From: Acidobacteriota bacterium
Lineage (GTDB): Bacteria > Acidobacteriota > Thermoanaerobaculia > Multivoradales > UBA5704
DNA length: 64,000 bases
Assembly: GCA_040005235.1 (NCBI GenBank)
Contig: JBDTZG010000016.1
Span: 1 to 64,000 of the forward strand
Direction of reading: 5' to 3'
Positions 5,631 to 64,000 of this stretch are shown here, in pieces (positions within the stretch are counted from its first letter, which is position 1; the number at the start of each line of letters is the position of its first letter). Below the pieces are notes generated by a model. It did no database searches, was not told the DNA's origin, and was given only the letters and a program-made list of their open reading frames with translations. The position numbers and the translations under genes were made by a program.

Positions 5631-6737
5631 TCAAACGGCGATCGCTTCGAGAATCCACATGGGGCTCGCCGTCGGATGAACAGCCGAAAGCGCGAATTCC
5701 GAAGCCTCCAACAGGCGGCGGAATTCCTCCCGGCTCCGCTCGCGTCCACCGTCACACGCCACCAACATGTGCAGATCAACTTTCGCGCCGAATCCGGCGG
5801 CTTCGTTCCGCTCGACGATCGACTCGACCACCAGCAGTTTGGCTCCCGGAGCCGCCGCGCGCCGGCAGGTGGCGAGGATCGTCCGGCAGCGTTCGTCGTC
5901 CCAATCGTGGAGCACCTGTTTGAGCAGATAGCCGTCGCAACCCGAAGGCGCTTCGACGAAGAAGTTGCCGGGGACCCGCTCGACCCGGTCGAGCACGCCC
6001 TGCCGCTCCAGATAGGGAAGCGCCTGGTCGAGCACGCCCGGGGCGTCCACGAGCACGCCGCGCAGGTTTGGATGTCGACGGAGGATCGCGGCGAGCATCG
6101 TCCCCCGGCCGCCGCCCAGATCGGCGAGCCGGGCAATTCGCCCAAACGCGGGATTCGCGGCGACGGTAGGGGCGTACATCTCGGTGATCGCTCCCATCGC
6201 CGCCGCGAAGGTCGCCAGATCGTTTGGATGCTCGTCGAACCAGGTCCAGATCGACTGGCCGTAAATGCGGGGAAAGGCGTTCTCGCCGGTTTCGACCGTG
6301 CGGATGAGATCGGCCCAGGCGGTGACCGTCGCCTCCGAGCCGAAATACTCGGCGACCGGACCGACCGCTGCCCGGTCGCTCCGGAGCGCCTCGGACAGGC
6401 GGTTGTTCGAAAAGCGCCCCTGGGTGTCGAGGCGGAAGATTCCGGAAGACGCCAGGGCGCGGAGTGTGCGATGGAGAGCGTCGGCGTCGGCGCCGACCTC
6501 TTCGGCGAGCGCCGCTGCGGTCTGCGGGCCATGACCCAAGCGGTCCGCGATCGCGAGCCGCGAAGCGGTCCGGATCGCCTGGGTCTGGCCGGTGCCGGAC
6601 GCCCGATCGACCATCGCCGCCGACGCCGGCACCATCCGGTCGGCGAGCCCTAGAAACAGGCGCCGAAGCCACAACGCGGCGGTCACGGCGAAGCGTGGGG
6701 GGGCGCCGGGCAGCGGGGGAGGGGCAGAAGCGCTCAC
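5631..6737 (-). CDS. SAM-dependent O-methyltransferase with dimerisation domain
   Basis: DLGGGRG SAM motif, GNFF, LKQVLHDWDD and GGRERS. Confidence 0.9.
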   Translation of the reverse strand: MSASAPPPLPGAPPRFAVTAALWLRRLFLGLADRMVPASAAMVDRASGTGQTQAIRTASRLAIADRLGHGPQTAAALAEEVGADADALHRTLRALASSGIFRLDTQGRFSNNRLSEALRSDRAAVGPVAEYFGSEATVTAWADLIRTVETGENAFPRIYGQSIWTWFDEHPNDLATFAAAMGAITEMYAPTVAANPAFGRIARLADLGGGRGTMLAAILRRHPNLRGVLVDAPGVLDQALPYLERQGVLDRVERVPGNFFVEAPSGCDGYLLKQVLHDWDDERCRTILATCRRAAAPGAKLLVVESIVERNEAAGFGAKVDLHMLVACDGGRERSREEFRRLLEASEFALSAVHPTASPMWILEAIAV

Positions 6738-6955
6738 GGAGGGTGGAGTTTATAGGACGGCCGAGGCTCTGGGGCAGGGAATGACGGCCCGCGCGAAGAC
6801 GTTCGAAAAAGTGGCCTCTCCCGGCCCACCAAGCGTCTTCCAGGAAGTCGCTCCGGCAGAGGTAAACTCAAGAAACGGAAGGCTTCTGAGGCGCTTGTTC
6901 CGGGTGGGCACAAGTGCTAGACTTCGCGCTCGCATGCCCCGAGGAGTCTCACATC

Positions 6956-7528
6956 ATGGAAACCAATCTTTCGGATAGCCGGCCGGAAATCAAGACGGTC
7001 GGTGAAAGCTGGGTCACGACGACGTTCGAGGCCTTGGAGGACTGGTCGCAGCGCCATTCCTTCTGGCCCTTCCCTTTCGGCACCGCCTGCTGCGCGATCG
7101 AGTTCATGTCGACCGTCTCCGCCCACTATGACGTGGCGCGATTCGGTTCCGAGGTCGTCCGCTTCTCGCCGCGGCAGAGCGACGTGCTGCTGGTCGCCGG
7201 CACGATCAACGACAAGATGGGGCCGGTCTTGAAGCGCATCTACGACCAGATGGCCAACCCGAAATGGGTGATCTCGATGGGCGCCTGCGCTTGCTCGGGC
7301 GGTTTCTACCGCTCGTACCACGTGATGCAGGGGATCGACGAGATCATCCCGGTCGACATTTACGTCCCCGGCTGCCCGCCGACGCCGGAGGGCCTGATCT
7401 ACGGCATCCTTCAGCTCAAAGAGCGGGTCGTCCGCGACCGTCGACGCCAAAACGAGCAGAGAAAGCTGACGCCCATCGACAACAAGGAGAGCGAGCGTGC
7501 CGACGTTGGCCGAGCCGTCCCTGCTTGA
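6956..7528 (+). CDS. nuoB: NADH-quinone oxidoreductase subunit B
   Basis: GTACCAIE, SPRQSD, MGACACSGG and YVPGCPP; GAGGAG Shine-Dalgarno upstream. Confidence 0.96.
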   Translation: METNLSDSRPEIKTVGESWVTTTFEALEDWSQRHSFWPFPFGTACCAIEFMSTVSAHYDVARFGSEVVRFSPRQSDVLLVAGTINDKMGPVLKRIYDQMANPKWVISMGACACSGGFYRSYHVMQGIDEIIPVDIYVPGCPPTPEGLIYGILQLKERVVRDRRRQNEQRKLTPIDNKESERADVGRAVPA

Positions 7529-9206
7529 GGAGATTCAAGAGAAGTTTCCCGCCGGCAGCATCACCGCGCAGGAAGGTCTCGACCAGCCGACCTGGGTGGT
7601 GAAGCGCGAGGTGCTGGTCGAAGTGGCCAAAGAGCTGCGCGACCGGCGCGATACGCGCTTCGACCTCCTGCTCGACGTCGCCGGGGTCGATTACCCGGAG
7701 CGAGAAGACAGCGAGGGCGGTCGCTTCGACGTGGTCTACCACCTCTATTCGGTGGCGCGGAACGACCGCCTGCGCCTGAAGGTGCCGGTCTCCGAAGCCG
7801 ACGCGCTGCTGCCGTCGGTGATTCCGGTCTGGAAGGGTGCCAACTGGTTCGAGCGCGAGGTCTACGACATGTTCGGGGTGAAGTTCTCCGGCCATCCGAA
7901 CCTGTCACGCATTCTCTGCCACGAGGCGTTCCAAGGGCATCCGCTGCGCAAGGATTACGATCCGGCGCGGCGCTGGATCTTGACCGAGGCCGACATCTAC
8001 AAGCCGCATTTCGACCTGCCCGAGGGCGAGGACGACCTGTTCGAGCGGATGGCGATCAACATCGGCCCTTCGCATCCGGCGATGCACGGCACGTTCCGGC
8101 TGATGGCGGTGCTCGACGGCGAGGCGATCATCGCCTCCGACGTGGAGATCGGCTATCTCCATCGTTGCTTCGAAAAGATGGCCGAGACCCACAACTGGCA
8201 GCAGATCATTCCCTACACCGACCGGCTGAACTACTGCTCGGCGTTCATCAATAACGTCGCCTACTGCAAGACGGTCGAGAAGCTCTTGAAGATCGAAGCG
8301 CCGCCGCGGGCGGTCTGGGCGCGCACGATCCTCACCGAGTTCTCCCGCATCATGGATCACTGCGTCTGCAACGGCGCCACGCTGGTCGACGCCGGGGCGC
8401 TCACCAATTTCTGGTACCTGTTCCAGCCGCGTGAAGAGATCTACGGCCTGATCGAATCGTGCTGCGGTGCGCGTTTGACCGTCTCCTACGGCCGCATCGG
8501 CGGCCTCGCCCAGGATCTGCCGACCGATTTCGTCGCGCGGAGCCGGAAGCTGCTCGAGACGATCCCGAAGTTCATCGACGATACCGAAGCGCTGATCAAC
8601 AAGAACCGGATCTGGATCGACCGCACGGTCGGCGTCGCCGCGATCTCGGGCGAAGAGGCGATCAACTGGGGCTGGACCGGCCCGTGCCTCCGCGCGAGCG
8701 GCGTCGGCCTCGACCTGCGCCGGGCCAAACCCTACGATCTGTACGACACGGTCGATTTCGAGGTGCCGGTGCTCACCGGCGGCGATGTCTACGACCGATT
8801 CCGCATCCGCATGATGGAGATCCGCGAGTCGCTCAAGATCATCCGCCAGCTGCTCGACCGCGGCATGCCGGAAGGGCCGTACATCATCCAGGATCCGCAC
8901 ATCGCGCTGCCGCCGAAAGACGCCTGCTACAACCAGATGGAAGCCATGATCTATCACTTCAAACTGATCATGGACGGCATCCAGGTGCCGCCGGGCGAAA
9001 CCTACCAGGCGGTCGAAGGGGCGAACGGCGAGTTCGGCTTCTACGCGATCAGCGACGGCTCGTCCAAACCCTATCGGTTGAAGTGCCGGCCGCCCTGTTT
9101 CCCGATTTTCTCCACCTTCTCCCGACTGATCAATGGCGGCTCGCTCTCCGACGCCATCGTCTCGTTGGGCGGCCTGAACATCATCGCGGGAGAGCTGGAA
9201 CGATGA
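7497..9206 (+). CDS. nuoCD: NADH-quinone oxidoreductase fused subunit C/D
   Basis: EREVYDMFG and GHPLRKDY (NuoC); GPSHPAMHG, GYLHR and C-terminal GELER (NuoD). Confidence 0.96.
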   Translation: MPTLAEPSLLEEIQEKFPAGSITAQEGLDQPTWVVKREVLVEVAKELRDRRDTRFDLLLDVAGVDYPEREDSEGGRFDVVYHLYSVARNDRLRLKVPVSEADALLPSVIPVWKGANWFEREVYDMFGVKFSGHPNLSRILCHEAFQGHPLRKDYDPARRWILTEADIYKPHFDLPEGEDDLFERMAINIGPSHPAMHGTFRLMAVLDGEAIIASDVEIGYLHRCFEKMAETHNWQQIIPYTDRLNYCSAFINNVAYCKTVEKLLKIEAPPRAVWARTILTEFSRIMDHCVCNGATLVDAGALTNFWYLFQPREEIYGLIESCCGARLTVSYGRIGGLAQDLPTDFVARSRKLLETIPKFIDDTEALINKNRIWIDRTVGVAAISGEEAINWGWTGPCLRASGVGLDLRRAKPYDLYDTVDFEVPVLTGGDVYDRFRIRMMEIRESLKIIRQLLDRGMPEGPYIIQDPHIALPPKDACYNQMEAMIYHFKLIMDGIQVPPGETYQAVEGANGEFGFYAISDGSSKPYRLKCRPPCFPIFSTFSRLINGGSLSDAIVSLGGLNIIAGELER

Positions 9207-9853
9207 AGATGCCAATGTCTGAGCAACTCAACATCCCCAACAAGGTGACGCCCTACAAGATGGGGCTCGCCGAGAAGCTCTATCTGCCGCTGCTCACCGG
9301 TCTGTTCGTGACGATGCGCCACTTCGTGAAAAACCTGATCAATCCGAAGGGCATGCCGACGATCAACTACCCGGAGGAGCGGCGCGAGTACAGCCACCGC
9401 TACCGCGGACACCACATCCTCACCACCCGCCCCGACGGCTCGGTCCGCTGCGTCGCCTGTTTCCTCTGCGCGGCGAATTGCCCGGCCGATTGCATCACGA
9501 TCGAAGCGGGGGAGCACCCGGACGTCAACATCGAGAAGTACCCGGTGGTCTACGAGATCGACATGCTCCGCTGCGTCTTCTGCGGCTTCTGCGTCGACGC
9601 CTGCCCGGAAGAGGCGATCATCATGTCGAACAACTACGACATGGCCTACTTCCACCGCGACCAATCGATCGTCGGCAAAGCCGACCTGATGAAGCCCTAC
9701 ACCTTCGACGAGAAGCGCCTCGGTTACCGGCCGTACTATCCGGAAGAAGACGCCCAGCACAACAAGATGCGCCGTGACGCCTTCGATCTGGTGGCGATGG
9801 CGAAAGCAAAGGCGGCGGTGGAGCCGGTGTCGGCGTCGGCCGTGAGGGGTTGA
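9203..9853 (+). CDS. nuoI: NADH-quinone oxidoreductase subunit I
   Basis: Two 4Fe-4S motifs CVACFLCAANCP and CVFCGFCVDACP; TINYPEE; ATGA overlap with nuoCD. Confidence 0.94.
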   Translation: MKMPMSEQLNIPNKVTPYKMGLAEKLYLPLLTGLFVTMRHFVKNLINPKGMPTINYPEERREYSHRYRGHHILTTRPDGSVRCVACFLCAANCPADCITIEAGEHPDVNIEKYPVVYEIDMLRCVFCGFCVDACPEEAIIMSNNYDMAYFHRDQSIVGKADLMKPYTFDEKRLGYRPYYPEEDAQHNKMRRDAFDLVAMAKAKAAVEPVSASAVRG

Positions 9854-9867
9854 AACCCCGTAACCTA

Positions 9868-9889
9868 GCGAGCGATTTTAATCGCTCGC
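9868..9889 (+). terminator. Hairpin after nuoI (terminator or REP-like)
   Basis: GCGAGCGATT-TT-AATCGCTCGC palindrome; no clear U-tract. Confidence 0.5.
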
Positions 9890-9911
9890 GGGGTCGGCTA
9901 CGATACCCATC

Positions 9912-10322
9912 GTGGACATCGACCCGGAGGCTTGGCAGCGCGCCGCGGCATCTCTCGATCAGCAGTTCGGTCTAGAGGTGCTCTGGCTCTATGGTTCCGC
10001 CGCCAAGGGAACCGATCGACCGGGCTCCGATCTGGATCTCGGCGCGCTCTTTACCCGGCGGCCGAGCGGGTACGAATTATTCAAGGCCGCGATTGCGGTC
10101 GGCGAGATTCTCGGCCCCCCGGTAGACCTGGTCGATCTAGACCGCGCCGGGCCGATCCTCGGTATGCAGGTTCTACGCTACGGCCGCCTGCTGGTCGATG
10201 CCGTCCCGCGTCGGCGTCATGGGTTTTTCTCCCGCACCGTCAGCCTCTACGAGGACCTGAAGATTCTCCGCCGCCCGGCCGAGAAGGCGATGTACGAGAG
10301 GATGAGCCATGGTCGACCTTGA
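9912..10322 (+). CDS. mntA: Minimal nucleotidyltransferase antitoxin (MntA-like)
   Basis: GSX10DXD motif (GSAAKGTDRPGSDLD) and VDLVDL. Confidence 0.9.
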   Translation: MDIDPEAWQRAAASLDQQFGLEVLWLYGSAAKGTDRPGSDLDLGALFTRRPSGYELFKAAIAVGEILGPPVDLVDLDRAGPILGMQVLRYGRLLVDAVPRRRHGFFSRTVSLYEDLKILRRPAEKAMYERMSHGRP

Positions 10323-10728
10323 TGTGGTGACGGCGAAGATCTCAACTCTCGAACGCTGCCTCGCCCGCATCGAGAGCACGAGATCGCAGCTGGGCCTCGC
10401 CGAAGCGGATCGCGACGACATCACCGCGCTCAACCTGGAAAGGGCCATCCAAGCGGTCATGGACCTCGCGATCCATGTCGTAGCGACCGAGGGCTACGGT
10501 GTACCTGACTCCGCCGGTGATTCCTTCCGCCTGCTCGGTGAACGGCGGATCATCCCCGGGGATCTGGTGGAGCGGCTTCGGAAGATGGTGGGCTTCCGCA
10601 ACATCTCGATCCACGACTACCGGAAGCTCGATCCCGCGATCTTCCAATCGATCATCGCCGGGCGTCTGGGCGACCTGCGGGAATTCGCGGCGCGTTTGAT
10701 CGACGCGTTCGGGCTGGCTTCCTCCTAG
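10309..10728 (+). CDS. hepT: HEPN/DUF86 RNase toxin (HepT-like)
   Basis: RX4HXY motif (RNISIHDY); overlaps mntA. Confidence 0.9.
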   Translation: MVDLDVVTAKISTLERCLARIESTRSQLGLAEADRDDITALNLERAIQAVMDLAIHVVATEGYGVPDSAGDSFRLLGERRIIPGDLVERLRKMVGFRNISIHDYRKLDPAIFQSIIAGRLGDLREFAARLIDAFGLASS

Positions 10729-10748
10729 CCACCCCGGAGGCCTCGGAA

Positions 10749-10976
10749 ATGAGCTATGACGATTGGGACGAGCAGTTCCGTGAGGAACGGGTGACCTATA
10801 CCCTAGAGGATGGAGACCGGCTCATCGTGATCGAGAATGTCCCGGCGCGGGTTTCTCTACGGACAGGGGAGCGACTCTTTTCTCCGGCTACTGTAGAGCG
10901 AATTCAGACGATCGTCTGGGGTAAAGGCCAGCCCGTTCGAACTCTCCAGACACCCGTGTTCCAGTTCGTGGCTTAA
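10749..10976 (+). CDS. YgiT-type (MqsA N-terminal-like) small protein without cysteines
   Basis: IVIENVPARV..TGE.LFSP.TVERIQ pattern; GGAGG SD. Confidence 0.7.
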   Translation: MSYDDWDEQFREERVTYTLEDGDRLIVIENVPARVSLRTGERLFSPATVERIQTIVWGKGQPVRTLQTPVFQFVA

Positions 10977-10990
10977 CCCTCTACCCAGCG

Positions 10991-11111
10991 CCCGGGATCG
11001 CCGGGCACCACCTCGGCTGTTGTCGCTTTCCTGGGAGCGCCGAGCACCAGCTCGGCACCCGCAGCGGCCGAGAAGACCAAAGCAGCCGAGCTGGTGCTCG
11101 GCGATCCCGGG
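10991..11111. repeat. REP/BIME-like cluster (three units)
   Basis: Units at 10991-11017, 11030-11056 and inverted at 11085-11111 match the 2961-3041 element, including a similar spacer. Confidence 0.85.
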
Positions 11112-11237
11112 AGAAGCACTCCCATTGGTACAATCAGGCCGAATCATGGCCGACCAGAAATCCAGGCCCACCTGCCAGCAAGGGGATTGGACTCCGAAAG
11201 TGGGCTCGAAGACAACGCACTCTCTCGAACGTGAACG

Positions 11238-14200
11238 ATGAGAATCACCGCAACGCAGATCTACCAATGGGCTGAGAAACCCGAAGCGAAAGGGTTGCTG
11301 CCCGTGTTGGTACGTCGCCTCATCAATGCAACCTCTTCACCGACGGAGTTGTCGATCCGCGGCGCGGACTCTCTGAACCTTCCTGGATGGGACGGTACGC
11401 TCAACGTTGCCAAGGGCAACGCCTGGGTCCCAGTGGGCCAATCTCGCTGGGAAATGGGTGGTTCGGCAGACGTAGCGGGCAAGGCGCGCGACGACCTCAA
11501 AAAGCGAACTGCCGAAACTAGCCGGGAAGTTGCGGCCAATTTGGACTTCATCTTCGTCTCTCCGCGACGCTGGATAGGCAAGAAGGACTGGCAGGAGGAA
11601 GCAACAGCAGTCAACCATTGGCGCAACGTGCGCGCCCACGATGCCGACGACTTAGAAGCTTGGCTCGAGGCCGCACCGAGCGTGACGCTGTGGTTCGGCG
11701 AGCAGTTGGGCTTGTGGGGACCAGGTATTGAATCGATAGGCTCGTACTGGGATACCTGGCGCGGCCAGACCATGGCACATCTGACGGTCGAAGCCATCAA
11801 TACCGGTCGGGAATCGTGTGTGGTCAAATTTGGCGACACGCTTTTCGAGACGCCTGCCCTGATCGTTCTTGAGGCGGACAGCACGGAAGAGGCTGTGGCT
11901 TTTGCCTGCGCTCAATTGGTGGCGTTCGGCCACTCCGACAACGCGGCATGCATCACGAGTCCCGAGGGCTGGCGCTATGTTGATGCCAACCAGCAGATGC
12001 GGTTCCTGGTCGCCGCCAGTCCAGAGATCGCCGCGAGGCGCGCAGCGAAGGAAGGATCAATCCTGATCGTTCCCATGAACATCGGCGATCGGCCCGATTA
12101 CTTCTCACCTCCGGTGGCGCAAGCAGCGGAGGCGCAGCGCCTGATGCTCGAACGCCCCGACGCAGAGAGCTTCGAGAAAGCCCTCGTTGGTCTCGGCGAG
12201 GACTGCTCCGAAGCCGCCCGCCTGACCAGGTCCACAGGGCGGTCCTGGTCTGTTTATCGTCGCATCAAGGCGGCGAATCCTGCGATCGCTCAACCGGCAT
12301 GGATAAAAGATCCTTCCGCACGGTGTCTCACGGCGATCGTTCTTGTCGGCGGCTGGAACGACGCTGCGGCGGCCGACATCGCGTGTCTCGAAGCCGTCAC
12401 GGGTAAGAACTACGAGGATCTCGAGCGTGATTTGTTGCACATGGCGCACCTGGACGACTCCCCGGTCCTGAAAATCGGCACTGTCTGGAAGGCCAAAGCC
12501 CCACTAGAGCTTCTGTACCTATTCGCGTCAGCGTTCACGCGCTCCGAGTTGACGCGGTTCTTCGCAGCAGCGGAGGCAATTCTGGCTAAACCGGACCCTG
12601 CATTGCAGCTGGAGCCTGATCAGCGCTGGATGGCCTCGGTCTACGGCAAGGTCCGCGAGGAGTCCGGCATCGTCATCCACTCGATCACGGATTCCCTGGC
12701 GAAGCTGAGTGTCTACGCTGAGAACAACAACGACGAAAGGATTGCATCAGGTGTCCACGGGCTCGTCCGTACGCTGCTGGAAGGTGCGGATGGCGATCGC
12801 TGGCTTTCGCTCTCTAGCGTCTTGCGCGAGCTCGCCGAATCGTCACCCGAAATCTTCCTGCGCGCTGTGGAAGGCAGTCTTGAGCGGCACGATGCACCGA
12901 TCCGGCGACTGTTCACCGAGACCAGTGGCGACGCCGTTTTCGGAAGGCATTGGCACGCGAATCTGCTGTGGGCGCTGGAAACGCTTGCTTGGTCGCCCAA
13001 GTACGTTGGTTACGTGACGGATATTCTTGCCCGACTCTCATCTTCAGCCCTACCGGCGAATGTGTCGAATCGGCCAATGAAAAGCCTCGTTTCGCTGTTC
13101 CGGCCGTGGTGGCCACAGACGACAGCCGCGCCCAAGCCGCGCCTAGCGGCACTGGATCATCTGATCAAGATGCGTAATGACGTTGCCTGGGATCTTCTTG
13201 TAGCGCTCATTCCCGAGCCTTCGGGCTTCGCGGTCGCGAATGCCAAGCCGCACTGGCGGGGCGATGCCGCCAGCGCTGTCGGCCCGAATGATCTTGAGGG
13301 AATCCGGCAGTACTTCTCGGAAATTAACGCGCGCATCGTCGCCCAGTCTCAGGGTGTGCCTGTACGCATCGCCAAGCTAGTCGAATCTCTCGACAGCTTC
13401 GACGGGCAGGATCGCGAACAGATCGTCCGCCAAGTCGAAACATCCGCCGGCTTTCCCGACGACGATCGTGAGCTCATCCGCGGCGCGCTGCGCAAGTACC
13501 TCAGCTGGCATTACTCCTATAACCGCCGCGGCAAGCGCACGCGGACGACGGCGGATCGCTTACGCCCTCAGTTTGATGCGCTGAAGCCGACAAATCTCGT
13601 CACCCGCCACACTTGGCTCTTCCTTAATGATTGGGTCGAGATGCCGGATGGGCGAGACGATGACTATGAGAAAGCCGACGAGATTCGCGAGCGTCTGCGT
13701 TCCGAAGCCCTGCAAAAGATTTTCTCTGCAACTGGCTGGACCGGCATCGAAGAACTGATCCGGCGGGCGGGTTCACCTGGCCTGATCGGAAAACAGATCG
13801 CGCGCGCCGACTTTCCGGAGGCCGATGTCGCAGCTTGGACGCTCAAGCGATTCGCCGACGTTGGCGGACCGCTCCATGACCCCGTTCTGAATGGCCTGGT
13901 CCATGCGCTACCCCTCGACCGCCGCACTTCACTGCTCACGCAGTCTTGCGCGAAGCTCGACGCGTTAGCGATTGCGGCTTTTGCCAGCTTTGCGCCCTGC
14001 GATCGCGCGACGTGGAGTTTTCTCGACCGGCAGCCCTCTGATGCGCGACGGATCTACTGGCAAAGAGTGCAGCCCGGAGGAATGATCGCGGAGGATGTCG
14101 ACCTGGAATACTTCGTCGACCAAATGATGGAAGCTGGCCGGCACCGGACAGCGTTCCAAGCGATTCACATTGGTTTCAAGAGGGCCGATGCCGCACGGGT

Positions 14201-54619: not shown

Positions 54620-56127
54620 AGCGCCGCTTCCGCGGCCTGCGTACCGCTCCTGATTCCCATTACGACGCGATCCTGATCGGCTCCGGAGTCGGCGGCCTGG
54701 TCGCCGGCAACCTTCTCGCCCGCGCTGGGATGAAGGTCCTCCTCGTCGAGCAGCACTATATGGTCGGCGGCTATTGCAGCACCTTCCGACGCGGCGGCTA
54801 CACGTTCGACGCCGCAACCCATTTCTATCCCCTGCTCGGCAACCCGGACACGCTCACCGGACGGCTGCTCGGCGAGCTGGGGGTGACGACCGGCTGGGTG
54901 AAGATGGACCCGGTCGACACGTTTCACTTTCCCGACGGTTCCCGCTTCGAAGTGCCGGCCGATCTGGCCGGCTATCAGGCGAAAGTGAAGGCCGAGTTCC
55001 CCGAAGAAGCCGCGGCGCTCGATGGCTTCTTCGCCGAGGTGAAAGAGGTCTATTTCCTCGGCCTGCTCCACTATTTCCGCGGCAAGCCGATCGCCCAGAT
55101 GGATCGCCTAATGAAAGTACGCGACCTCACCTTGCGCCAGGTGCTCGACGCGCGCTTCCGCGACCGCAAACTCAAGCTCCTGCTCGCCGCCGACTGCCCC
55201 CATTGGGGCTCAGCCCCAGGGCGCACCTCGTTCGTCTTCGATTCGATGCTCCGGCTCTCCTACTTCCTAGGCAACTACTACCCAAAAGGGGGCTCCCAGG
55301 CGTTCGCCGACGAGCTGGCCCTCCGCTTCGAAGAGCAAGGAGGCCACCTGCTCACCAGCGCGCAGGTTCGACGGATTCACCTCGAGCAGGGAAGGGCGAA
55401 AGGGGTCGATCTCGAAGTCCTACGCGGACCGGTGAAGGCGCACTTTCCCGGTGGCCGAATCGCGAGCGACGTGGTGATTTCAAACGCCGATCTGCTCCAG
55501 ACCCTGGAACAGTTGGTCGGCCCGGAGCACCTCCCTCCCGAGATGCTGGCGGAGACCCGCTCGCTCCGCCCGACGTTTCCCTGCTGGCTCACGCACCTGG
55601 GGCTGGTCGACGTTTCGAACGAGGAGCTGGAGCGGGTTCAAGGCTACTACTGGGACGGCTGGGACATGGACCGCGTTGGGGTCGACGCGCTGCGCTTCAA
55701 GCTGTTCGCGCCGACCCTCTACGAGCCGGAAATGGCGCCGCCCGGCGGTCAAGTGTTGATCATCCAGAAGGTGTTGGAGATGGACTACGCGAAGGTCGAG
55801 GACTGGCCACGCCACAAGGCCGAGATCGAGGCGTTTCTGTTCGGTCACCTGGAGCGGCTGATGCCGGGGATCGGCAAGAAGATCGTGGTCCGCACCAGCG
55901 CCTCGGCGCAAACCTCCTACCGCTTCACGCTCAATACCCAGGGCGCCATGCTCGGCTGGGAGATGTCGCCCGATCAGTTGGGGGACGGCCGGCCGGCGAT
56001 CGAAACCCCGATCGAAGGACTCCACTGCGTCGGCCACTGGACCCGTCCCGGCGGCGGCATCACCCCGGTGATCGTCTCGGCGCAGCAGGTGGCGCAGAGG
56101 GTTCTGGCGGGCGGCGGCGGAGACTAG
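54616..56127 (+). CDS. FAD-dependent oxidoreductase, phytoene desaturase/retinol saturase family
   Basis: IGSGVGGL, E.H...GGYC..F.R.GY.FD, YPKGG and G.WT.PGGG. Confidence 0.88.
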   Translation: MKRRFRGLRTAPDSHYDAILIGSGVGGLVAGNLLARAGMKVLLVEQHYMVGGYCSTFRRGGYTFDAATHFYPLLGNPDTLTGRLLGELGVTTGWVKMDPVDTFHFPDGSRFEVPADLAGYQAKVKAEFPEEAAALDGFFAEVKEVYFLGLLHYFRGKPIAQMDRLMKVRDLTLRQVLDARFRDRKLKLLLAADCPHWGSAPGRTSFVFDSMLRLSYFLGNYYPKGGSQAFADELALRFEEQGGHLLTSAQVRRIHLEQGRAKGVDLEVLRGPVKAHFPGGRIASDVVISNADLLQTLEQLVGPEHLPPEMLAETRSLRPTFPCWLTHLGLVDVSNEELERVQGYYWDGWDMDRVGVDALRFKLFAPTLYEPEMAPPGGQVLIIQKVLEMDYAKVEDWPRHKAEIEAFLFGHLERLMPGIGKKIVVRTSASAQTSYRFTLNTQGAMLGWEMSPDQLGDGRPAIETPIEGLHCVGHWTRPGGGITPVIVSAQQVAQRVLAGGGGD

Positions 56128-57086
56128 CTTCCGAGGCCGAGTTCATCGATCGAGCTCACTTCCAAGATCCGATCAGTGAATCCGCCCAACTCATCCAGAG
56201 AGGAGATGGCTTCGATCCGTCGCCTAGTCGCGGGCGAAACCGCTCCAAAGCGCTGCCCGATTTGGCGGAGGAGGGTGGAGCGGAGGCGTTCAATGCCCTT
56301 CTCCATTCCTTTCTCCATTCCCCTCTCCATCCCCTTCTGGAGCCCCGCTTGCTCGTATTGCGCTTGCATCCGATCGGCCCATGTCAGTTCCATCGCTTCG
56401 ACCTCCGGAGTAGGTTCGGCGGCGCGAAGGGCTGCGTATTCCGTTGCCTCGCGACCCGCCAATTGTAGATACGTTTCGACACAGTTGGTCAACAGGAATT
56501 TCTTCGCCTCGCCGATTCGGGACGAGGCGATTTTCCTCTGTAGCGCGAGCTTGAGGCGAGCCCTGCCCAGCTTGCCAGGAAGAGCCAGCGAGGCGAGCGC
56601 CCAGGCCAGCGGCTCGGGGCGATCCAGGAGAATCTCGGCCGGCATGCGGGAGAGGCCGAGAGATAGGAAACGGAAGCGGTGGATCTCCTCGTCGAACGCC
56701 TGCTCGGCGCAGACGGTCCATTGGGCCCCGGGTGGGCCGCCTCTCAGAAAGACGACGATCGAGACCACGGGCCGAGCGTAGTACAAGCAGATCTGGAACG
56801 AATAGCGCCAGAGCCTGCGGCTGATCGAGGTGCGGAATTGGCGCTCGATCTCTACGTGGACCAACGGTTTGCGCTCGCCGGAGCCGCTGGGAATCTCGGC
56901 GAGGAGGTCGGCCTCCCGGCGCCGGCCTTCCGGTAGGTCGTGAAACACCTCCTTGTCGAGAAATGTGATGGCTCGCAATCCGAAGTCTTCGGCGAGGCGG
57001 CTCGCCAGGCCGGGGTCGGCCAAGCGAACGAGCTCTGGGAAGAAAGCTCGAAACAGGTCTTTGAACATCTGATCGTGGCGGTTCAT
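56124..57086 (-). CDS. Rpn/YhgA-like PD-(D/E)XK nuclease with a DUF4351-like C-terminus
   Basis: HDQMFK.L, ADLL, HVEIE, GME[RK] repeats and LLRQI..RFG. Confidence 0.85.
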   Translation of the reverse strand: MNRHDQMFKDLFRAFFPELVRLADPGLASRLAEDFGLRAITFLDKEVFHDLPEGRRREADLLAEIPSGSGERKPLVHVEIERQFRTSISRRLWRYSFQICLYYARPVVSIVVFLRGGPPGAQWTVCAEQAFDEEIHRFRFLSLGLSRMPAEILLDRPEPLAWALASLALPGKLGRARLKLALQRKIASSRIGEAKKFLLTNCVETYLQLAGREATEYAALRAAEPTPEVEAMELTWADRMQAQYEQAGLQKGMERGMEKGMEKGIERLRSTLLRQIGQRFGAVSPATRRRIEAISSLDELGGFTDRILEVSSIDELGLGS

Positions 57087-57224
57087 GGCGGTGGACGCCC
57101 TCCTACCGCTCTAAAGACGCGAATCACCCCCTGACTCTTGATGGTTCGGCGTAATTCGTTCGAATTCCTCGGCTAACCCGGCCCGGTGCTATCGTTTCGG
57201 GCCACGAACCGGAGGGAGCCTCAA

Positions 57225-58172
57225 ATGCTGCGCCCCCTGCTGTCGATCGGAGGGATTTTGTTCGCCACCGCTTGCGCCGCGACCGCACCGCCTGCTTCGA
57301 AACCTCTGTCGGAGGTGCCGAAACCGGCTCTCCCGGAAGTTTCTGCCGCGATCGGATCCGCATTGGCCGGTGCCAAGGGAACCACCGCGGTCTCGTTCTA
57401 CGACCTCGCCACGGGGGAGACCGCCGGGCGCGAGGAACACCGGCGGTTCCACGCCGCGAGCACGATGAAGGTTCCGGTGCTGGTCGAGCTGTTCCGGGCG
57501 ATCGATCGGGGGGAAATGGCACTGGACCGTCCGGTCCCGGTGAAGAACGAGTTCAAGAGCCTGGTGGACGGCTCGCCGTTCAGCCTGAACCAAGAGGAGG
57601 ACGGCGACCCGGATCTTTACGCGGCGGTGGGGGAGAGCCGGGCGCTGGGCGAGCTGGCGCGGCGGATGATCCAGCGCAGCTCGAACCTTTCGACCAACCT
57701 GCTGATCGAGCTGCTGGGCGCGAAGCGCGTGACCGCCGCGATGCGAGAGCTGGGTGCCAGCGAGATCGAAGTCCTACGCGGGGTGGAAGACCAGAAGGCG
57801 TTCGATGCCGGGTTGATCAACTCGACGACCGCCTATGATCTCCAAGTCATCCTGCGCGCGATTGCCGAGAAGAAGGCGGTCTCAGGGGCGGCGAGCGCGG
57901 CGATGATCGAGATCCTGGAGGGCCAAGAGTTCAAGGAGAAGATCCCGGCGGGCCTGCCTCCTGGAACGCGGGTGGCTAACAAGACCGGCGACATCACGGG
58001 CATCCACCACGACGCGGCGATCATTTTTCCTCCGGGGCCGCCGGGCCGGGCGCCTTACGTGCTGGTGGTGCTCACGGAAGGGTACCCGAGCGAAGAAGAG
58101 GCAGATGCCTCGATCGGGGCGGTCTCGAAGGCGGTATGGCAGGCGGTACAGGCGGGCGCAAGCTCACGATAG
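57225..58172 (+). CDS. Class A beta-lactamase-like serine hydrolase (probable lipoprotein)
   Basis: AASTMK (SxxK), SSN, NKTG and HDAAI. Confidence 0.88.
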
Positions 58173-59448: not shown

Positions 59449-59474
59449 TGGCGCCGGGGGTCGTTGGTGCGCTG

Positions 59475-59534
59475 GAGACGCCCCGACAGCCAGCACCCGG
59501 GTAGGTCTGTGGTCGCGTCCTGGGGCGTCTCTAC
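59475..59534. repeat. REP-like inverted arms
   Basis: GAGACGCCCC (59475) and GGGGCGTCTCTAC (59522; the reverse complement begins GTAG). Confidence 0.5.
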
Positions 59535-59613
59535 CCCCTGCAGTGCCTCCGAGCAGGCGCGTAAACCCTGATAGCCTTGGCGCCTTCCGGTCTTTCGGAG
59601 GAGGCGCGCCGCG

Positions 59614-62514
59614 ATGAATCTCCCCACCCTCGCTTCTCAGGTCGTCGAAGCCCTGGCTCCGGCGTTGCCGCTCCTGCTCGGCACGGCGGGAGCGATCGGT
59701 GGATCGGTGGCGAAGGAGATCGGAAAAGACGTCTGGGAGAAGGGGAAACAGATCTGGGGCCGCGTCGGCGGCACGATCGAAGCGAGCCCTGCGGCTAAGG
59801 AGATCGCACAGGAGCTGGCCGCTGATCCCGAGGACGCCGACCTCAAGAGGCAGCTGGCCGACCGGCTCGCGCGGCTGCTTGCAAAGGACGAGGCGCTCGC
59901 CACTACTCTCGCCGCTTGGGCCAGCGAGAGTGTCGTGGTGCAGAACCAGGGGTCCGGCCCTGCGGTAGCCGCCGCCACGAAGGGCATCGCGGCAGGTCAT
60001 GACCTCGTCAATATTCAGACGGTCAACGTCTATCTAACCACCATCAACCGCGAGCTTGCCGCCGTCGCTCCGGCGGTCGATCTGGAGCAGGGGATGCGGC
60101 GTTATCAGGCGTATCTCCTGTCGCGGCACACCCACCTCGAATTTCGCGGCATGGGCGTCGACCGCCTGGTGCTCAAGCTGCCGCTCACGGAAGTCTACGT
60201 GCCGGGCCGCGCGCGGGTGCGGGCTCCCGAGGGGGACTCGTGGACGCGAATCGCGGCACGCCTCCGGGGTCGCGAGCCGGGCGCTGAGGACGTCGAATCG
60301 ATGGGGGAGCGAGGTCGCCCGGCCGAGCTGCTCGATCTGTTGAAAGACAAGGCCGGGCTCGTACTGCTCGGCGATCCGGGGGCGGGCAAGTCGACGTTCT
60401 TGAAGTTCCTCGCGCTCAAGGCCGCGCGCGGTGAATCCGAAGAACTCGGTCTCGGCCTTCGGCTGCCGCTGCTCGCCCCGCTCGCGGCGTATGCCACGCG
60501 CCTTGGCGGGGAGCCGGGCTTGAATCTCCAGTCTTTCCTCGCCGAGCAGCTCGCCGAACAGGGGGTGCAGGTCAACGCCGCGCGCCTGCTCGCCGAGGGG
60601 CTCGGCAAGGGGCGAATGCTGATCCTGCTCGATGGCCTCGACGAGGTGGCGGACGAAAAGCTGCGCCACAAGGTAGCCGCGCGGGTGAAGGACTTCTTCT
60701 GCGCGGTCCAAGGGGACGGCAACAAACTGGTCGCGACCAGCCGGATCGTCGGCTATGCCGAGGCGCGGATCGAAGCGGAAGGCCTGGGCGAAGGCACGCT
60801 GGTCGATTTCGACGACGACGAGATCGAGGCGTTCGTGACCCGCTGGACCGCGGCGGTCGAACGCGCCGCGCGGGGCGAGGGCGATGCCGCGACCTTCGAC
60901 GCCGAGCGCGAACGCACGGGACTGCTGGCGGCGATTCGTCGCGACTCCGGCGTCGGGCGCTTGGCCGCAAATCCGCTCCTCCTCACCATTCTCGCCCTGA
61001 TGAAACGCCAGGGGGTGGAGCTGCCCGAGCGGCGGGCGGAGCTCTACTCAACCTACGTCCGCGTGCTGATCCACCAATGGAATCTCGCGCGTTCGCTCTC
61101 GGGCGAAGCGGTCGCCGGTCTCGACGTGGGCGAAACGCTTCGGGTTCTCGCCCCGCTCGCGCTCTGGATGCAGGAGACCTCCGGCGCGCGCGGCATGGTT
61201 ACGGAAGAGGCGTTGCAAGGGGAGCTGCGCCGCCTCTTTGCCGATGAGCCCGATCCGGCGCAGGCGGCGGCGCGCTTTCTATTCGACGTGCGGAAGGACA
61301 CCGCGCTCCTGATCGACCGCGGAGGCAAGACTTTCGGCTTCATCCACCTCACTTTCCAGGAGTACCTGGCGGCGGTCGCGCTGGTCCAAACCGCGCAGAT
61401 CGAGCTACCGCCGCTGGTCGAAGCGCTCGCGGCCCGAGTCGGCCAGCCGGAGTGGCTGGAAGTGATTCGTTTGGCCATTGGCGATCTCGCGCGCGATCGT
61501 CCCGAAGCCGCGGGGCGGATGAGCGAACAGATCCTCGAAAGCCGACCCGGTCCGCCGGGCGAGGCCGAGATCTTTGCCGGCCTCGCGGCGCTCGACATCG
61601 GCCGCAAGGGTCTCCCCGCCGCCTCGCGCGAACGCGCGGTCGGCGCGCTGCTCTCGACCCTGCGCGACGACGAGCGAGTGCCGGCCGGCATCCGCGCCCA
61701 GGCGGGCGAAGTGCTGGCGGATCTGGGCGACCCGCGCCCGGAGGTGACGACGCTCGCCGGAATGCAGTTCTGCCGGGTGCCGGCGGGTCCATTTCGGATG
61801 GGGAGCGAAGAGCGCGACGAGGATTCTTACTTGGACGAGCGGCCGCAGCACGATCTCGACCTTCCCGAGCCGTACGAAATCGGGCGCTTCCCGGTCACGG
61901 TTGCGCAGTTCGCGGAATACGTCGTGCGAAGCGGCAACCCTCCCGGCGATCCGGACGCTTTGCGCGGCGGGGTGAACACTCCCGTCGTCTGGGTGAGTTG
62001 GCACGGGGCGACCTCCTTCTGTCGCTGGCTCACCGAAACATGGCGGGAGGAAGGGAAGTTGAAGGCGGACGGGCAGGTGCGCCTGCCGTCGGAAGCGGAG
62101 TGGGAAAAAGCTGCGCGGGGCGGCTTGGTCAACAATCCGGCGCCGACGAGAAATTACCCCTGGGAGGGGGCCTTCGATCCGAACCGGGCTAATTGCAACG
62201 CCACGGAGATCGGGAGACTGAGCGCGGTGGGCTGCTTCCCCGGTGGGGCGAGCCCGCACGGAGTGGAGGAGCTGGCGGGGAATGTGTGGGAGTGGACCCG
62301 GAGCGTTCGGGCCGAGAAGTTCAGCTACCCCTACGTGCCTGGCGACGGTCGGGAGGACCTCGAATCTCCCCTTCAGGTGGTGTTGCGCGGTGGGGCGTTC
62401 CTCGATCGGCCGAGGGTCATCCGTTGTGCCGTTCGCGACTGGGGCGAACCTGACGGTCGCTACGACGGTGTCGGGTTTCGTATCGTGGTGTCCCCGTTCC
62501 TCTCTGGCCTCTGA
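59614..62514 (+). CDS. NLR-like protein: Bell/HeLo-like N-terminus, amyloid-like motif, NACHT NTPase, FGE-sulfatase (CLec) domain
   Basis: GDPGAGKST, LLDGLDE, NPLLLT and F.HLTFQEY; FGE motifs F.MGS, PVT..QF, RLPSEAEWEKAARG, GNVWEW, RGG.F and GFR; GGAGGAGG SD. Confidence 0.92.
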   Translation: MNLPTLASQVVEALAPALPLLLGTAGAIGGSVAKEIGKDVWEKGKQIWGRVGGTIEASPAAKEIAQELAADPEDADLKRQLADRLARLLAKDEALATTLAAWASESVVVQNQGSGPAVAAATKGIAAGHDLVNIQTVNVYLTTINRELAAVAPAVDLEQGMRRYQAYLLSRHTHLEFRGMGVDRLVLKLPLTEVYVPGRARVRAPEGDSWTRIAARLRGREPGAEDVESMGERGRPAELLDLLKDKAGLVLLGDPGAGKSTFLKFLALKAARGESEELGLGLRLPLLAPLAAYATRLGGEPGLNLQSFLAEQLAEQGVQVNAARLLAEGLGKGRMLILLDGLDEVADEKLRHKVAARVKDFFCAVQGDGNKLVATSRIVGYAEARIEAEGLGEGTLVDFDDDEIEAFVTRWTAAVERAARGEGDAATFDAERERTGLLAAIRRDSGVGRLAANPLLLTILALMKRQGVELPERRAELYSTYVRVLIHQWNLARSLSGEAVAGLDVGETLRVLAPLALWMQETSGARGMVTEEALQGELRRLFADEPDPAQAAARFLFDVRKDTALLIDRGGKTFGFIHLTFQEYLAAVALVQTAQIELPPLVEALAARVGQPEWLEVIRLAIGDLARDRPEAAGRMSEQILESRPGPPGEAEIFAGLAALDIGRKGLPAASRERAVGALLSTLRDDERVPAGIRAQAGEVLADLGDPRPEVTTLAGMQFCRVPAGPFRMGSEERDEDSYLDERPQHDLDLPEPYEIGRFPVTVAQFAEYVVRSGNPPGDPDALRGGVNTPVVWVSWHGATSFCRWLTETWREEGKLKADGQVRLPSEAEWEKAARGGLVNNPAPTRNYPWEGAFDPNRANCNATEIGRLSAVGCFPGGASPHGVEELAGNVWEWTRSVRAEKFSYPYVPGDGREDLESPLQVVLRGGAFLDRPRVIRCAVRDWGEPDGRYDGVGFRIVVSPFLSGL

Positions 62515-62536
62515 GCTCTGGGCCCTCTGTTCTCTG
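62502..62536 (+). repeat. Five CTCTG units spanning the stop codon
   Basis: CTCTG at 62502, 62509, 62516, 62525 and 62532. Confidence 0.8.
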
Positions 62537-62616
62537 GCGGGCACTTGCGGAAACCCCACCCGCCCTTCGACCTTGCTAAACTGAGCGCTCATCCTTGTTC
62601 AGGGAGCGCGGAGGCC

Positions 62617-64000
62617 GTGACGAAAAGAGCAGAGCCCGACGGGACCGACCTCGTACGCTCGGCGCTCGCGGCGCAGGGGTACTCGGAAGAAAAGATCGCG
62701 GAGATTCTCGCGGGTCTGGGTGGCGCGCATGCGAAGGCGGAAAGCCAGAGCGCCGTGTCGCAAGGGGGTGGCGCCGCCGCGACCGATCACGGCATCGCGG
62801 TCGGGGGTGACGTTCATGGCGGCATGACCGTGGTGCAACCCGGAGTCTCCGGCGCGCCGACCGGTAAGACTCTGGACGAGGCGTACCTCCGCTATCTCTG
62901 CGCCGAAGTGAGCCGGGTCACCCTGTCGCAGATCGATTCTTCGGTCGAAGGCGCCGATCCGCTCGCGAAGTTTGAGCTTCACGCGGTCTATACCGCTTTG
63001 CTGACCACGACTCCTCGCGGCAAGCCGGGACGCGAGATGCCTGCCCCATCGATGTTGGATCGTGGAGTGCGCTCCCTGTCCGCGCTCGAACTGCTCGACC
63101 TGCACCCGCGGTTGGTTCTACTCGGCGATCCGGGTTCGGGCAAGAGCACGTTCGTCCACTTTGTGGCGCTCTGTCAGGCGGGGGAGCGAGTCGGCGCCCC
63201 CTGGCCGGATCTCGGCGTGCTCACCGCCCCCGTTCCCGGGGAAGAGAAGGTACAGCCCTGGCGGCACGGCACGCTCGTGCCGGTGCGAGTGATCCTCCGT
63301 GACTTTGCGGTCGATGGCCTGCCGGCGCTCGGGGAGAAGGCAACGGCAGAGCACCTCTGGCAGTTCATCGCAGGCAGCCTCGCCGCGGTGGGGGTCGGCG
63401 ACTACGCGCCCCGGCTGCGAGATCGACTCCTTTCCGAAGGCGGGCTCGTGCTGCTCGACGGTCTGGATGAAGTCCCGGACGCTGCGGGCCGGCGGTTGCA
63501 GATCCGCGAAGCGGTGGAGAGCTTCTCAGGGTTGTACACCAAGTGTCGGGTTCTGGTGACCAGCCGGATCTATTCGTACCGCAGCCAGGGTTGGCGCCTT
63601 ACAGGCTTCGAGGAAGCGGAGCTGGCGCCCTTTTCCGACGCGCAGATCGAGCGCTTCGTGAAGGATTGGTACGCCCACGCGGCGAGCCGCGGGCGCGGCA
63701 GCGCGGAGGATGCGGAGGGCCAGGCGCGCTTGTTGGTCCAAGAGATCGAAGGAAACCCCCGCCTGCGCGGTTTCGCGGAGCGACCACTATTGCTGACGTT
63801 GATGGCGAGCCTGGCGCGGGCGCGCGGCCGGGGCTTACCGGATCGGCGGGCGAAACTCTACGAGCAGGTGGTCGAGCTGCTACTGGACCTGTGGGAATGC
63901 GTTCGCTATCAGAAGGACAAGGAGGGAAAATACCGCCTCGTCCAGCCCAGCCTTTCCGATTGGTTGAAGACCGACCGTAGCGCCGTGCGGGAAGTGCTCG
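62617..64000 (+). CDS. Second NACHT NTPase protein (runs off the window)
   Basis: Manual translation from GTG after GGAGG: MTKRAEPDG...GIAVGGDVHGGMTVVQ...LLGDPGSGKSTF...LLDGLDEVP...VTSR...RPLLLTLMA. Confidence 0.9.
   Translation, partial: MTKRAEPDGTDLVRSALAAQGYSEEKIAEILAGLGGAHAKAESQSAVSQGGGAAATDHGIAVGGDVHGGMTVVQPGVSGAPTGKTLDEAYLRYLCAEVSRVTLSQIDSSVEGADPLAKFELHAVYTALLTTTPRGKPGREMPAPSMLDRGVRSLSALELLDLHPRLVLLGDPGSGKSTFVHFVALCQAGERVGAPWPDLGVLTAPVPGEEKVQPWRHGTLVPVRVILRDFAVDGLPALGEKATAEHLWQFIAGSLAAVGVGDYAPRLRDRLLSEGGLVLLDGLDEVPDAAGRRLQIREAVESFSGLYTKCRVLVTSRIYSYRSQGWRLTGFEEAELAPFSDAQIERFVKDWYAHAASRGRGSAEDAEGQARLLVQEIEGNPRLRGFAERPLLLTLMASLARARGRGLPDRRAKLYEQVVELLLDLWECVRYQKDKEGKYRLVQPSLSDWLKTDRSAVREVL

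Follow-up and report, generated by a model that had tools for sequence, protein, structure and literature searches.

A three-gene NACHT cassette of an acidobacterium with a Bell-like helical domain and a glycine-rich motif shared between receptor and candidate executioner

How do two tandem NACHT genes at the end of a stretch of acidobacterial DNA pass on their signal, and to what? The stretch (here called the window) is bases 1-64,000 of contig C138, which is 100,065 bases long and belongs to an assembly of 6.2 Mb and 140 contigs. A preliminary description had read these genes, gene 1 and gene 2, as NOD-like receptors (NLRs) with a common amyloid-like motif: the first would carry a Bell/HeLo-like effector domain, and the second would be an effector-less sensor able to cross-seed it, possibly combined with diversification by a diversity-generating retroelement (DGR). 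Part of the answer lies beyond the window, where gene 2 turned out to have a predicted partner of its own: gene 3, encoding a protein of 162 residues, begins 80 nucleotides past gene 2 on the same strand, and gene 2 can thus no longer be called effector-less. Because gene 3 is homologous to gene 1 over its helical domain and matches gene 2 in its motif, we read genes 2 and 3 as an effector-NLR pair of the published Bell/BASS type, with gene 1 as a fused paralogue. The three genes are probably a cassette for cell suicide or defence that is built on NLRs and belongs to the Bell-domain/amyloid-signalling systems, in which gene 2 would template gene 3 and gene 1 would be the version acting in cis.

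A third gene beside the tandem NACHT genes

The N termini of genes 1 and 2 were compared by phmmer with all 41,468 six-frame open reading frames (ORFs) of the genome. With either query, a single further ORF was found (65388-65969, gene 3); its match to gene 1 (1.1e-5) covers the helical domain, and that to gene 2 (8.6e-4) covers the motif. Approximately the first 110 residues of gene 3 align with the N-terminal domain of gene 1, and its C-terminal motif, SAIGQGGGAAAAGGGIAIGGNVYGG, aligns with SAVSQGGGAAATDHGIAVGGDVHGG of gene 2. A word-indexed search with gene 3 returned six relatives (61-65% identity), all of which have the motif; for one of them, the source record gives a hypothetical protein from a Thermoanaerobaculia metagenome-assembled genome (MAG). 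A profile of gene 3 homologues (n=7) recovered residues 1-140 of gene 1 (6.0e-17) as well as the motif of gene 2 (2.8e-5), and a 116-sequence hidden Markov model (HMM; alignment A3) applied to the ORFs of the genome gave gene 3 at 2.6e-40 and gene 1 at 7.5e-33, with the next ORF at 0.21. At these values (6.0e-17 and 7.5e-33), the N-terminal domain of gene 1 shares homology with the helical domain found in small proteins of effector type, whose build resembles that of the published Bell proteins. The features of the locus are as follows.

59614..62514, + strand: gene 1, 966 residues, with helical N-terminal domain, motif segment, NACHT and FGE-sulfatase/CLec domain (from ORF, translation and Pfam)
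59614..59925, + strand: gene 1 residues 1-104, the Bell-like helical domain (from family profile/HMM and AlphaFold2 model)
59926..60033, + strand: gene 1 residues 105-140, the motif segment, located after the helical domain and ahead of NACHT
60361..60852, + strand: NACHT NTPase module of gene 1, residues 250-413 (Pfam PF05729, 5.2e-10, 39.8 bits)
61771..62487, + strand: FGE-sulfatase (C-type-lectin-fold) domain of gene 1, residues 720-958 (Pfam PF03781, 2.5e-45), the presumed ligand sensor
62365..62514, + strand: 3' stretch of gene 1 with homology to DGR variable repeats in the NLRs of a relative (aligned with TR, VR1 and VR2 of locus L010; see below)
62545..64000 within the window, + strand: gene 2, with short N terminus, motif, NACHT and FGE domain; it ends at contig position 65403
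62740..62835, + strand: N-terminal motif of gene 2, SQSAVSQGGGAAATDHGIAVGGDVHGGMTVVQ (gene 3 family profile, 2.8e-5)
65484-65972 of contig C138 (= L001:1484-1972), beyond the window, + strand: gene 3, 162 residues (P0003)

The NACHT calls on both genes (39.8 bits for gene 1; 2.3e-08 and 34.5 bits for gene 2) exceed the curated Pfam gathering score of 26.7 bits, and the motif strings that the preliminary description had quoted are where it had placed them, at 59929-60030 in gene 1 (residues 106-139, VVVQNQGSGPAVAAATKGIAAGHDLVNIQTVNVY) and at 62740-62835 in gene 2. Both genes contain P-loop-type strings (GDPGAGKST in gene 1 and GDPGSGKST in gene 2) together with LILLDGLDE (gene 1) or LVLLDGLDE (gene 2); we take the GDPGxGKST and DGLDE strings to be Walker A and Walker B. 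The C terminus of gene 2 is an FGE-like domain paralogous to that of gene 1. All three frames are open over their full length. A strong Shine-Dalgarno-like sequence, GGAGGAGG, lies 8-9 nucleotides upstream of the gene 1 ATG. Gene 2, which crosses the end of the window, encodes 952 residues if counted from the TTG at 62545; however, the GTG at 62617 is the likelier start, because of the alignment with a homologue that begins VTRKP.

The helical-domain family

An exhaustive HMMER search with a nine-sequence profile matched 2428 clusters at E<=1e-3, of which 994 remained at E<=1e-10 and 17 at E<=1e-30. Family members are mostly proteins of 130-165 residues, and the majority of the best 150 matches are shorter than 200 residues. 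The consensus of the 116-sequence alignment opens with MDxxxLAxxxxxxLAPxLPYLL; position 2 is D or E in 95/116 sequences, and most members begin exactly at the MD and the hydrophobic helix that follows it. Gene 3 conforms to this pattern with either of its first two start codons (ME at the first ATG and MD at the second). The N-terminal helix is hydrophobic in both genes, with a best 19-residue Kyte-Doolittle window of 1.63 for gene 3 and 1.72 for gene 1. Toward their C termini, family members have G-rich, beta-type motifs such as ASGxRSVAIGGxVxGSxIxTGD. The only Pfam match that recurs among the 116 members is YadA_head (18/116; best E-value, 5.2e-4), which we take to fall on the C-terminal motif segment and to reflect a beta-roll-type repeat pattern. 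Within the phylum, just 3 of 401 sampled genomes carry the domain.

In three family members (P0078, 346 residues; P0020, 283 residues; P0108, 613 residues), the Bell-like domain and motif are found at the C terminus, preceded by a caspase-like CHAT domain in P0078 and by pentapeptide repeats in P0108. Since the MD-helix is internal in these proteins, they hint that the domain is freed proteolytically or is used in some other way. At another locus (L004; G064:C15), a small ORF (1333-1788, - strand) encoding a distant family member (2.8e-8) lies divergent to a STAND NTPase gene that starts at 1927 on the + strand; no common motif was visible between the two, which may be paired in some other manner. 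A lead from the ESM Atlas, PF20701 (HetE-N), which came from 14% of one neighbouring cluster, was dropped after giving no match in the genome at E<=10.

Motif matching between partners

Motif pairs were scored by local BLOSUM62 alignment against 2000 composition-preserving shuffles. The motifs of genes 2 and 3 scored 98, versus 35.6 +/- 6.2 for the shuffles, with 19/31 residues identical and none of the 2000 shuffles reaching the observed score. For genes 1 and 2, the score was 43 versus 27.4 +/- 4.8 (13/2000 shuffles; 14 identities in 34 columns), and for genes 1 and 3, it was 37 versus 25.0 +/- 4.4 (24/2000 shuffles). By these comparisons, the strong pair is that of genes 2 and 3, and the motif of gene 1 is the most divergent of the three; the similarity between genes 1 and 2, on which the preliminary description had been built, is real, if modest. 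In composition, the motifs of genes 2 and 3 contain no K, P or L, and that of gene 1, which is rich in G, A, V, N and Q, contains one each of K, P and L in 34 residues. The gene 1 segment does align with the motif part of the family profile. Among the gene 3 homologues (n=7), Q128, G129-G131, A133, A134, G137, G138, G142, G143, N144, V145 and G147 are invariant.

Does such matching hold elsewhere? The C terminus of the small protein was compared with the pre-NACHT region of the NLR at eight loci (the locus described here, L010, G016, L051, L024, L027, L038 and L020). Cognate pairs scored 81 on average, versus 53 for non-cognate pairs, and the observed sum was reached in 2 of 20,000 permutations, a figure that overstates independence because the eight loci are partly related. 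The cognate partner was the best in its row in 4/8 cases and the best in its column in 3/8. At G016, both partners carry a distinct motif, ITASGD[RS]SVAA[QE]NINAPVII, which makes this locus a clean, independent case. A literature search for the motif strings returned no paper.

Structure models

AlphaFold2 models, built with the family alignment, show a confident helical bundle in both proteins. For gene 1, mean pLDDT per 10-residue block is 93-97 over residues 1-20 and 41-100 and 73-82 in the loop at 21-40; helices span residues 3-21, 29-36, 38-57, 59-70, 75-91 and 93-112. The helix pattern of gene 3 is the same, with helices across residues 6-121, and in both helical domains mean pLDDT is >=86 in most 10-residue blocks, with lower values confined to the loop that follows helix 1. 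Neither monomer model gives the motif any structure: pLDDT is <50 for residues 117-138 of gene 1, and residues 122-152 of gene 3 are disordered. A complex prediction with three copies of gene 3 residues 105-162 together with gene 2 residues 55-110 scored 0.20 against a mark of 0.32 and was uninformative either way.

Fused forms and distribution of the cassette

Fusion of the helical domain to a receptor, as in gene 1, recurs. Gene 1 aligns end to end with another protein, P0016 (49% identity; residues 1-963 versus 1-997), and gene 2 is 65% identical to P0010 and 58% identical to the second NLR of L010. Since P0010, the nearest relative of gene 2, is itself fused, fusion and fission are recent and recurrent. 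Among the best 150 family matches, eight are long proteins whose helical domain lies at the N terminus, and in 8/8 the profile match extends to position >=133, that is, into the motif part; their Pfam partners are NACHT-FGE, NB-ARC-TPR and other STAND modules. A word-indexed search of long proteins with gene 1 residues 1-150 found gene 1 itself only among 7999 scored candidates.

Scanning metagenome contigs with the gene 1 clade alignment yielded 232 confirmed relatives, and the counts given here refer to the best 80 loci. The Bell-like HMM matched in 14 of these, as a fused domain in 10 and as a small protein in 6, with both forms in 2. A DGR-type reverse transcriptase (RT) is present at 19 of the 80, with the string IGNLTSQ in 11/19, and was not found within the retrieved flanks of the remaining 61. 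The Bell-like domain and a DGR-type RT occur together at L063 and at the near-identical L051 and L052. The full arrangement of a fused NLR, a small protein and an NLR with the motif was seen again at L010 and L024, and L020 has a fused NLR followed by a small protein. A similar scan with the gene 3 alignment gave 599 pattern matches, none of which was confirmed.

Proposed mechanism and alternatives

In the available text of Dyrka et al. (2020; bioRxiv 10.1101/2020.01.06.895854), Bell is an alpha-helical domain of ~100 residues in proteins of ~120-140 residues, with a hydrophobic N-terminal helix that has an acidic residue at position 2 or 3 and with a C-terminal motif of ~25 residues, in which G, N, Q, V and I abound and K, P and L are scarce. 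The motif recurs at the N terminus of an adjacent, mostly collinear NLR, and 'all-in-one' Bell-NLR fusions are rarer. The pair formed by genes 3 and 2 agrees with this description in size, helices, N-terminal helix, repetition of the motif and motif composition, and the shape of the wider family fits it as well. What the sequences themselves show is the domain composition, the homology of the helical domains, the pair-specific match of the motifs, the recurrence of the arrangement at other loci and a DGR within the cassette of a relative. From published work on Bell/BASS (Streptomyces and Nostoc), fungal HET-S/NWD2 and Bab/Agp of Escherichia coli, we infer that the motifs form amyloid and template one another, that the membrane is attacked, that the system serves in defence and what the sensors may bind. 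In the mechanism that we propose, genes 1 and 2 would be NACHT NTPases whose C-terminal FGE-sulfatase domains sense a ligand, and gene 3 would be a small, free executioner consisting of a helical bundle of ~110 residues with a hydrophobic N-terminal helix and a G/A/I/V-rich motif of ~30 residues. Ligand binding would cause the NACHT modules to oligomerise; oligomerised gene 2 would gather its N-terminal motifs into a cross-beta nucleus; this nucleus would template the matching C-terminal motif of gene 3; and the helical domain of gene 3, once freed, would attack the membrane. Gene 1 could act in cis, since it has an executioner domain and a diverged motif in one chain, and it may also recruit free gene 3 protein.

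A number of observations speak against this reading. At position 2, gene 1 has N rather than D or E. The helical domain is covered by no model in Pfam, NCBIfam or PADLOC (a Pfam search with gene 1 residues 1-240 likewise gave no match), and our assignment follows the published description of Bell rather than the founding Bell sequence, hence 'Bell-like'. The sensors are FGE domains and not the TPR or WD repeats of published Bell-NLR pairs. Foldseek searches of the PDB with both models returned nothing at E<=0.001; VIA-align against 48,161 chains gave best Z scores of 5.4 and 4.7, both to unrelated proteins and within helical-bundle noise; and HeLo, MLKL and Bab-type entries were absent among the fold-search matches listed. 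An HMM search of PDB sequences with the family profile also gave nothing below an E-value of 0.036. As no solved structure matches either model, a likeness to HeLo, MLKL or Babybell is unproven. This fold test is weak in either direction, because Bell-type folds differ widely in topology according to the available text of Ibarlosa et al. (2024; bioRxiv 10.1101/2024.11.07.622273). Furthermore, a small partner is nearby in only 2 of the 10 fused NLRs, and three fused NLRs with 8 kb of flank on each side have none, so that fused forms do not require a free partner. Finally, the motif segment, kept in all gene 3 homologues, is the least conserved part of the gene 1 clade: over residues 105-140 of four sequences, only G115, A126 and A127 are invariant. 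With this poor conservation and with a proline inside it, the gene 1 motif could be a decayed linker.

That last point can be carried further. The G/A-rich segments might all be flexible, low-complexity linkers left behind by duplication, fusion and fission, without any templating, and the helical domain might be a homotypic adaptor of the effector-associated-domain or death-like type, working through helix-helix contact. Such an explanation would account for the disorder of the segment in both models and for its poor conservation in the gene 1 clade, as well as for the proteins in which the helical domain follows a CHAT protease domain or pentapeptide repeats; moreover, the domain occurs both fused to NTPases and standalone, which is how the available text of Kaur et al. 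(2021; PMC8195603) defines effector-associated domains. However, gene 2 has no helical domain and has only the motif in common with gene 3, so helix-helix recruitment cannot join the two. In addition, the motifs of paired proteins vary together from locus to locus, gene 3 homologues conserve theirs strongly, and no further effector gene was found in the cassette when the flanking genes were examined, leaving an adaptor without an enzyme to recruit. Most family members also start at the MD and hydrophobic helix, as expected of an N-terminal, membrane-active helix. All in all, we consider the linker-and-adaptor explanation unlikely.

A second alternative is the one that started this analysis, namely, that gene 2, without an effector of its own, cross-seeds the fused gene 1, whose executioner domain would then serve both receptors. 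The motifs of genes 1 and 2 do align better than their shuffled versions, and the available text of Dyrka et al. (2020) reports cross-seeding at 43-56% identity, close to the value for this pair. Nonetheless, the adjoining, free gene 3 is far better matched to gene 2 (98 versus 43), the gene 1 segment scored lowest against every one of the small-protein motifs in the eight-locus table (27-45), and the motif of gene 1 sits within the chain, joined to that protein's own NACHT. Cross-seeding between genes 1 and 2 is possible, but as the weaker reading of the two; that it is the main route seems to us very unlikely. We thus retain the cassette in which gene 2 would signal to gene 3 and gene 1 would act in cis.

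Possible diversification by a retroelement

Are the receptors diversified, as the preliminary description had suggested? Neither a DGR-type RT nor a template repeat (TR) was found in the assembly, and blastn searches of the assembly with the 3' ends of genes 1 and 2 matched only each other, besides themselves. The sole RT-like sequences are a YADD-type RT at a contig end (C11:94913-96142) and a maturase-like fragment (C35:48598-49167), both of which we presume to be group-II-intron-like. (The last 55 bases of the YADD-type sequence on C11 are the same as the start of contig C82.) What the genome does show of a DGR system is the target protein, with its C-terminal FGE/CLec domain and with gene 1 and 2 3' ends that align with the variable repeats (VRs) VR1 and VR2 of L010; a cognate TR with adenine-specific mismatches and a DGR RT are missing.

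L010, from a related Thermoanaerobaculia MAG, has the retroelement inside the cassette: a fused NLR is followed by a TR (6608-6748), an RT with IGNLTSQ (6766-7965), a small Bell-like protein (7992-8462) and an NLR with the motif (8473-11286). Both NLRs match the TR at their 3' ends, and 16/19 and 16/20 of the mismatches fall on TR adenines. Compared with this TR, 25/44 of the differences in the 3' end of gene 1 and 21/38 of those in gene 2 are at non-adenines. Judging from these alignments, DGR diversification appears to be wrong for the genome as assembled and right for the lineage. In contigs of two DNA runs from one study, both of which are possible sources of the assembly, the three genes are identical beyond position 109 of a 6801-nucleotide stretch; VR variation is still possible, since contigs hide rare variants.

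We speculate, with considerable reservation, that prion-like amyloid signalling and hypermutation by DGRs together make up a single bacterial immune design, each being one half of it. NACHT sensors with hypervariable C-type-lectin domains would then detect invaders and signal through a templating motif to a common pool of small, Bell-like membrane executioners; gene 1 would both kill in cis and nucleate the free effector, as an amplifier with one pool and many sensors; and the present genome would represent a lineage in which the diversifier was lost and the amyloid output retained. That the cassette is instead a decaying remnant, with its DGR lost, its sensors frozen and its function gone, might be read from the absence of RT and TR (both present in L010) and from the non-adenine differences just mentioned, but we regard this as highly improbable given three open, full-length frames, intact GDPGxGKST and DGLDE strings and the 61 of the best 80 metagenome loci that likewise show no RT in their retrieved flanks, which indicate that NACHT-FGE genes are common without an adjacent DGR.

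Flanking region

The cassette is flanked by housekeeping genes, whose products are an aldolase, a protein resembling beta-lactamases, another with an MBL fold, and subunits of a 2-oxoacid dehydrogenase. The gap that separates gene 1 from the aldolase gene contains a short palindromic repeat resembling repetitive extragenic palindromic (REP) elements (59474-59541; GGAGACGCCCC ... GGGGCGTCTC), with 25 more blastn matches on 15 other contigs of the genome; in two runs, contig depth at this repeat was ~15-fold above that of neighbouring genes. Further upstream are a beta-lactamase-family gene (57186-58172, + strand; Pfam Beta-lactamase2, 5.3e-48) and, adjoining it, an ORF of 320 residues (56124-57086, - strand) with a weak C-terminal match to DUF4351 and a run of GMEK/GIER repeats.

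Comparison with known systems

Several elements of this picture are already in print: Bell/BASS pairs, all-in-one Bell-NLRs, NACHT-FGS systems and the links of the latter to DGRs. New, in that they do not appear in the text searched, are an amyloid-type output on DGR-type NACHT-FGE receptors and three-part cassettes with a fused receptor that keeps the motif. A literature search combining amyloid with DGR-type NACHT-FGE proteins returned only reference-list citations of amyloid work, and the supplementary tables of Dyrka et al. may list such pairs. Templating of cell-death effectors by NLR amyloid motifs is established in fungi and has been proposed for filamentous bacteria, and phage defence by amyloid templating has been shown once, in E. 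coli, with a non-NLR sensor. The present locus and its relatives would join an amyloid output module to NACHT-FGE/CLec receptors, which others regard, in the text available, as DGR-diversified 'antigen sensors'. If this holds, one class of hypermutated bacterial receptors gains a named output, amyloid signalling reaches the Acidobacteriota, and three-gene cassettes of ~6.4 kb allow signalling in cis (fused) and in trans (split) to be compared directly.

In fungal HET-S/NWD2 and HELLP/PNT1, a motif at the N terminus of an NLR templates the C-terminal motif of a helical pore-former (as outlined in the available text of Dyrka et al. 2020), which is the scheme proposed here; there is no sequence relationship, however, and likeness to the HeLo fold is unproven. 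Bab/Agp of E. coli, as presented in the available text of Ibarlosa et al. (2024), has a small helical executioner and a neighbouring, motif-matched sensor: Babybell, which has a C-terminal amyloid motif, is activated by the N-terminal motif of the sensor, with experimental proof of antiphage defence. Unlike the receptors described here, Agp has the make-up TPR-GreA/B-C-PIN and is not an NLR, and Babybell is shorter, at ~80 residues; PDB sequence, Foldseek and VIA-align searches revealed no sequence or fold link between Babybell and the present helical domain.

On the receptor side, the closest likeness is to the STAND NTPase-FGS proteins and DGR-associated NACHT-CLec 'antigen sensors' of Kaur et al. 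(2021; PMC8195603) and Dore et al. (2024; PMC10907252), which combine NACHT with a C-terminal FGE/CLec domain. In the available text of these papers, such targets are often found two in tandem, often beside a DGR, and have variable N-terminal effector or adaptor domains; neither an amyloid motif nor a Bell-like effector is named there, N-terminal extensions being left unnamed, and the present genome differs in being without a DGR as assembled. On the output side, the closest likeness is to the Bell/BASS pairs of Dyrka et al. (2020), which, in the text available, share with this locus a small helical protein whose C-terminal motif is repeated on a linked, collinear NACHT protein, as well as the existence of all-in-one forms. 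The sensor, however, is FGE-sulfatase/CLec here and TPR or WD repeats there, and the host is a Thermoanaerobaculia-like acidobacterium rather than an actinobacterium or cyanobacterium. The genes described here form a three-part cassette, in which the fused paralogue keeps the motif between its effector domain and NACHT.

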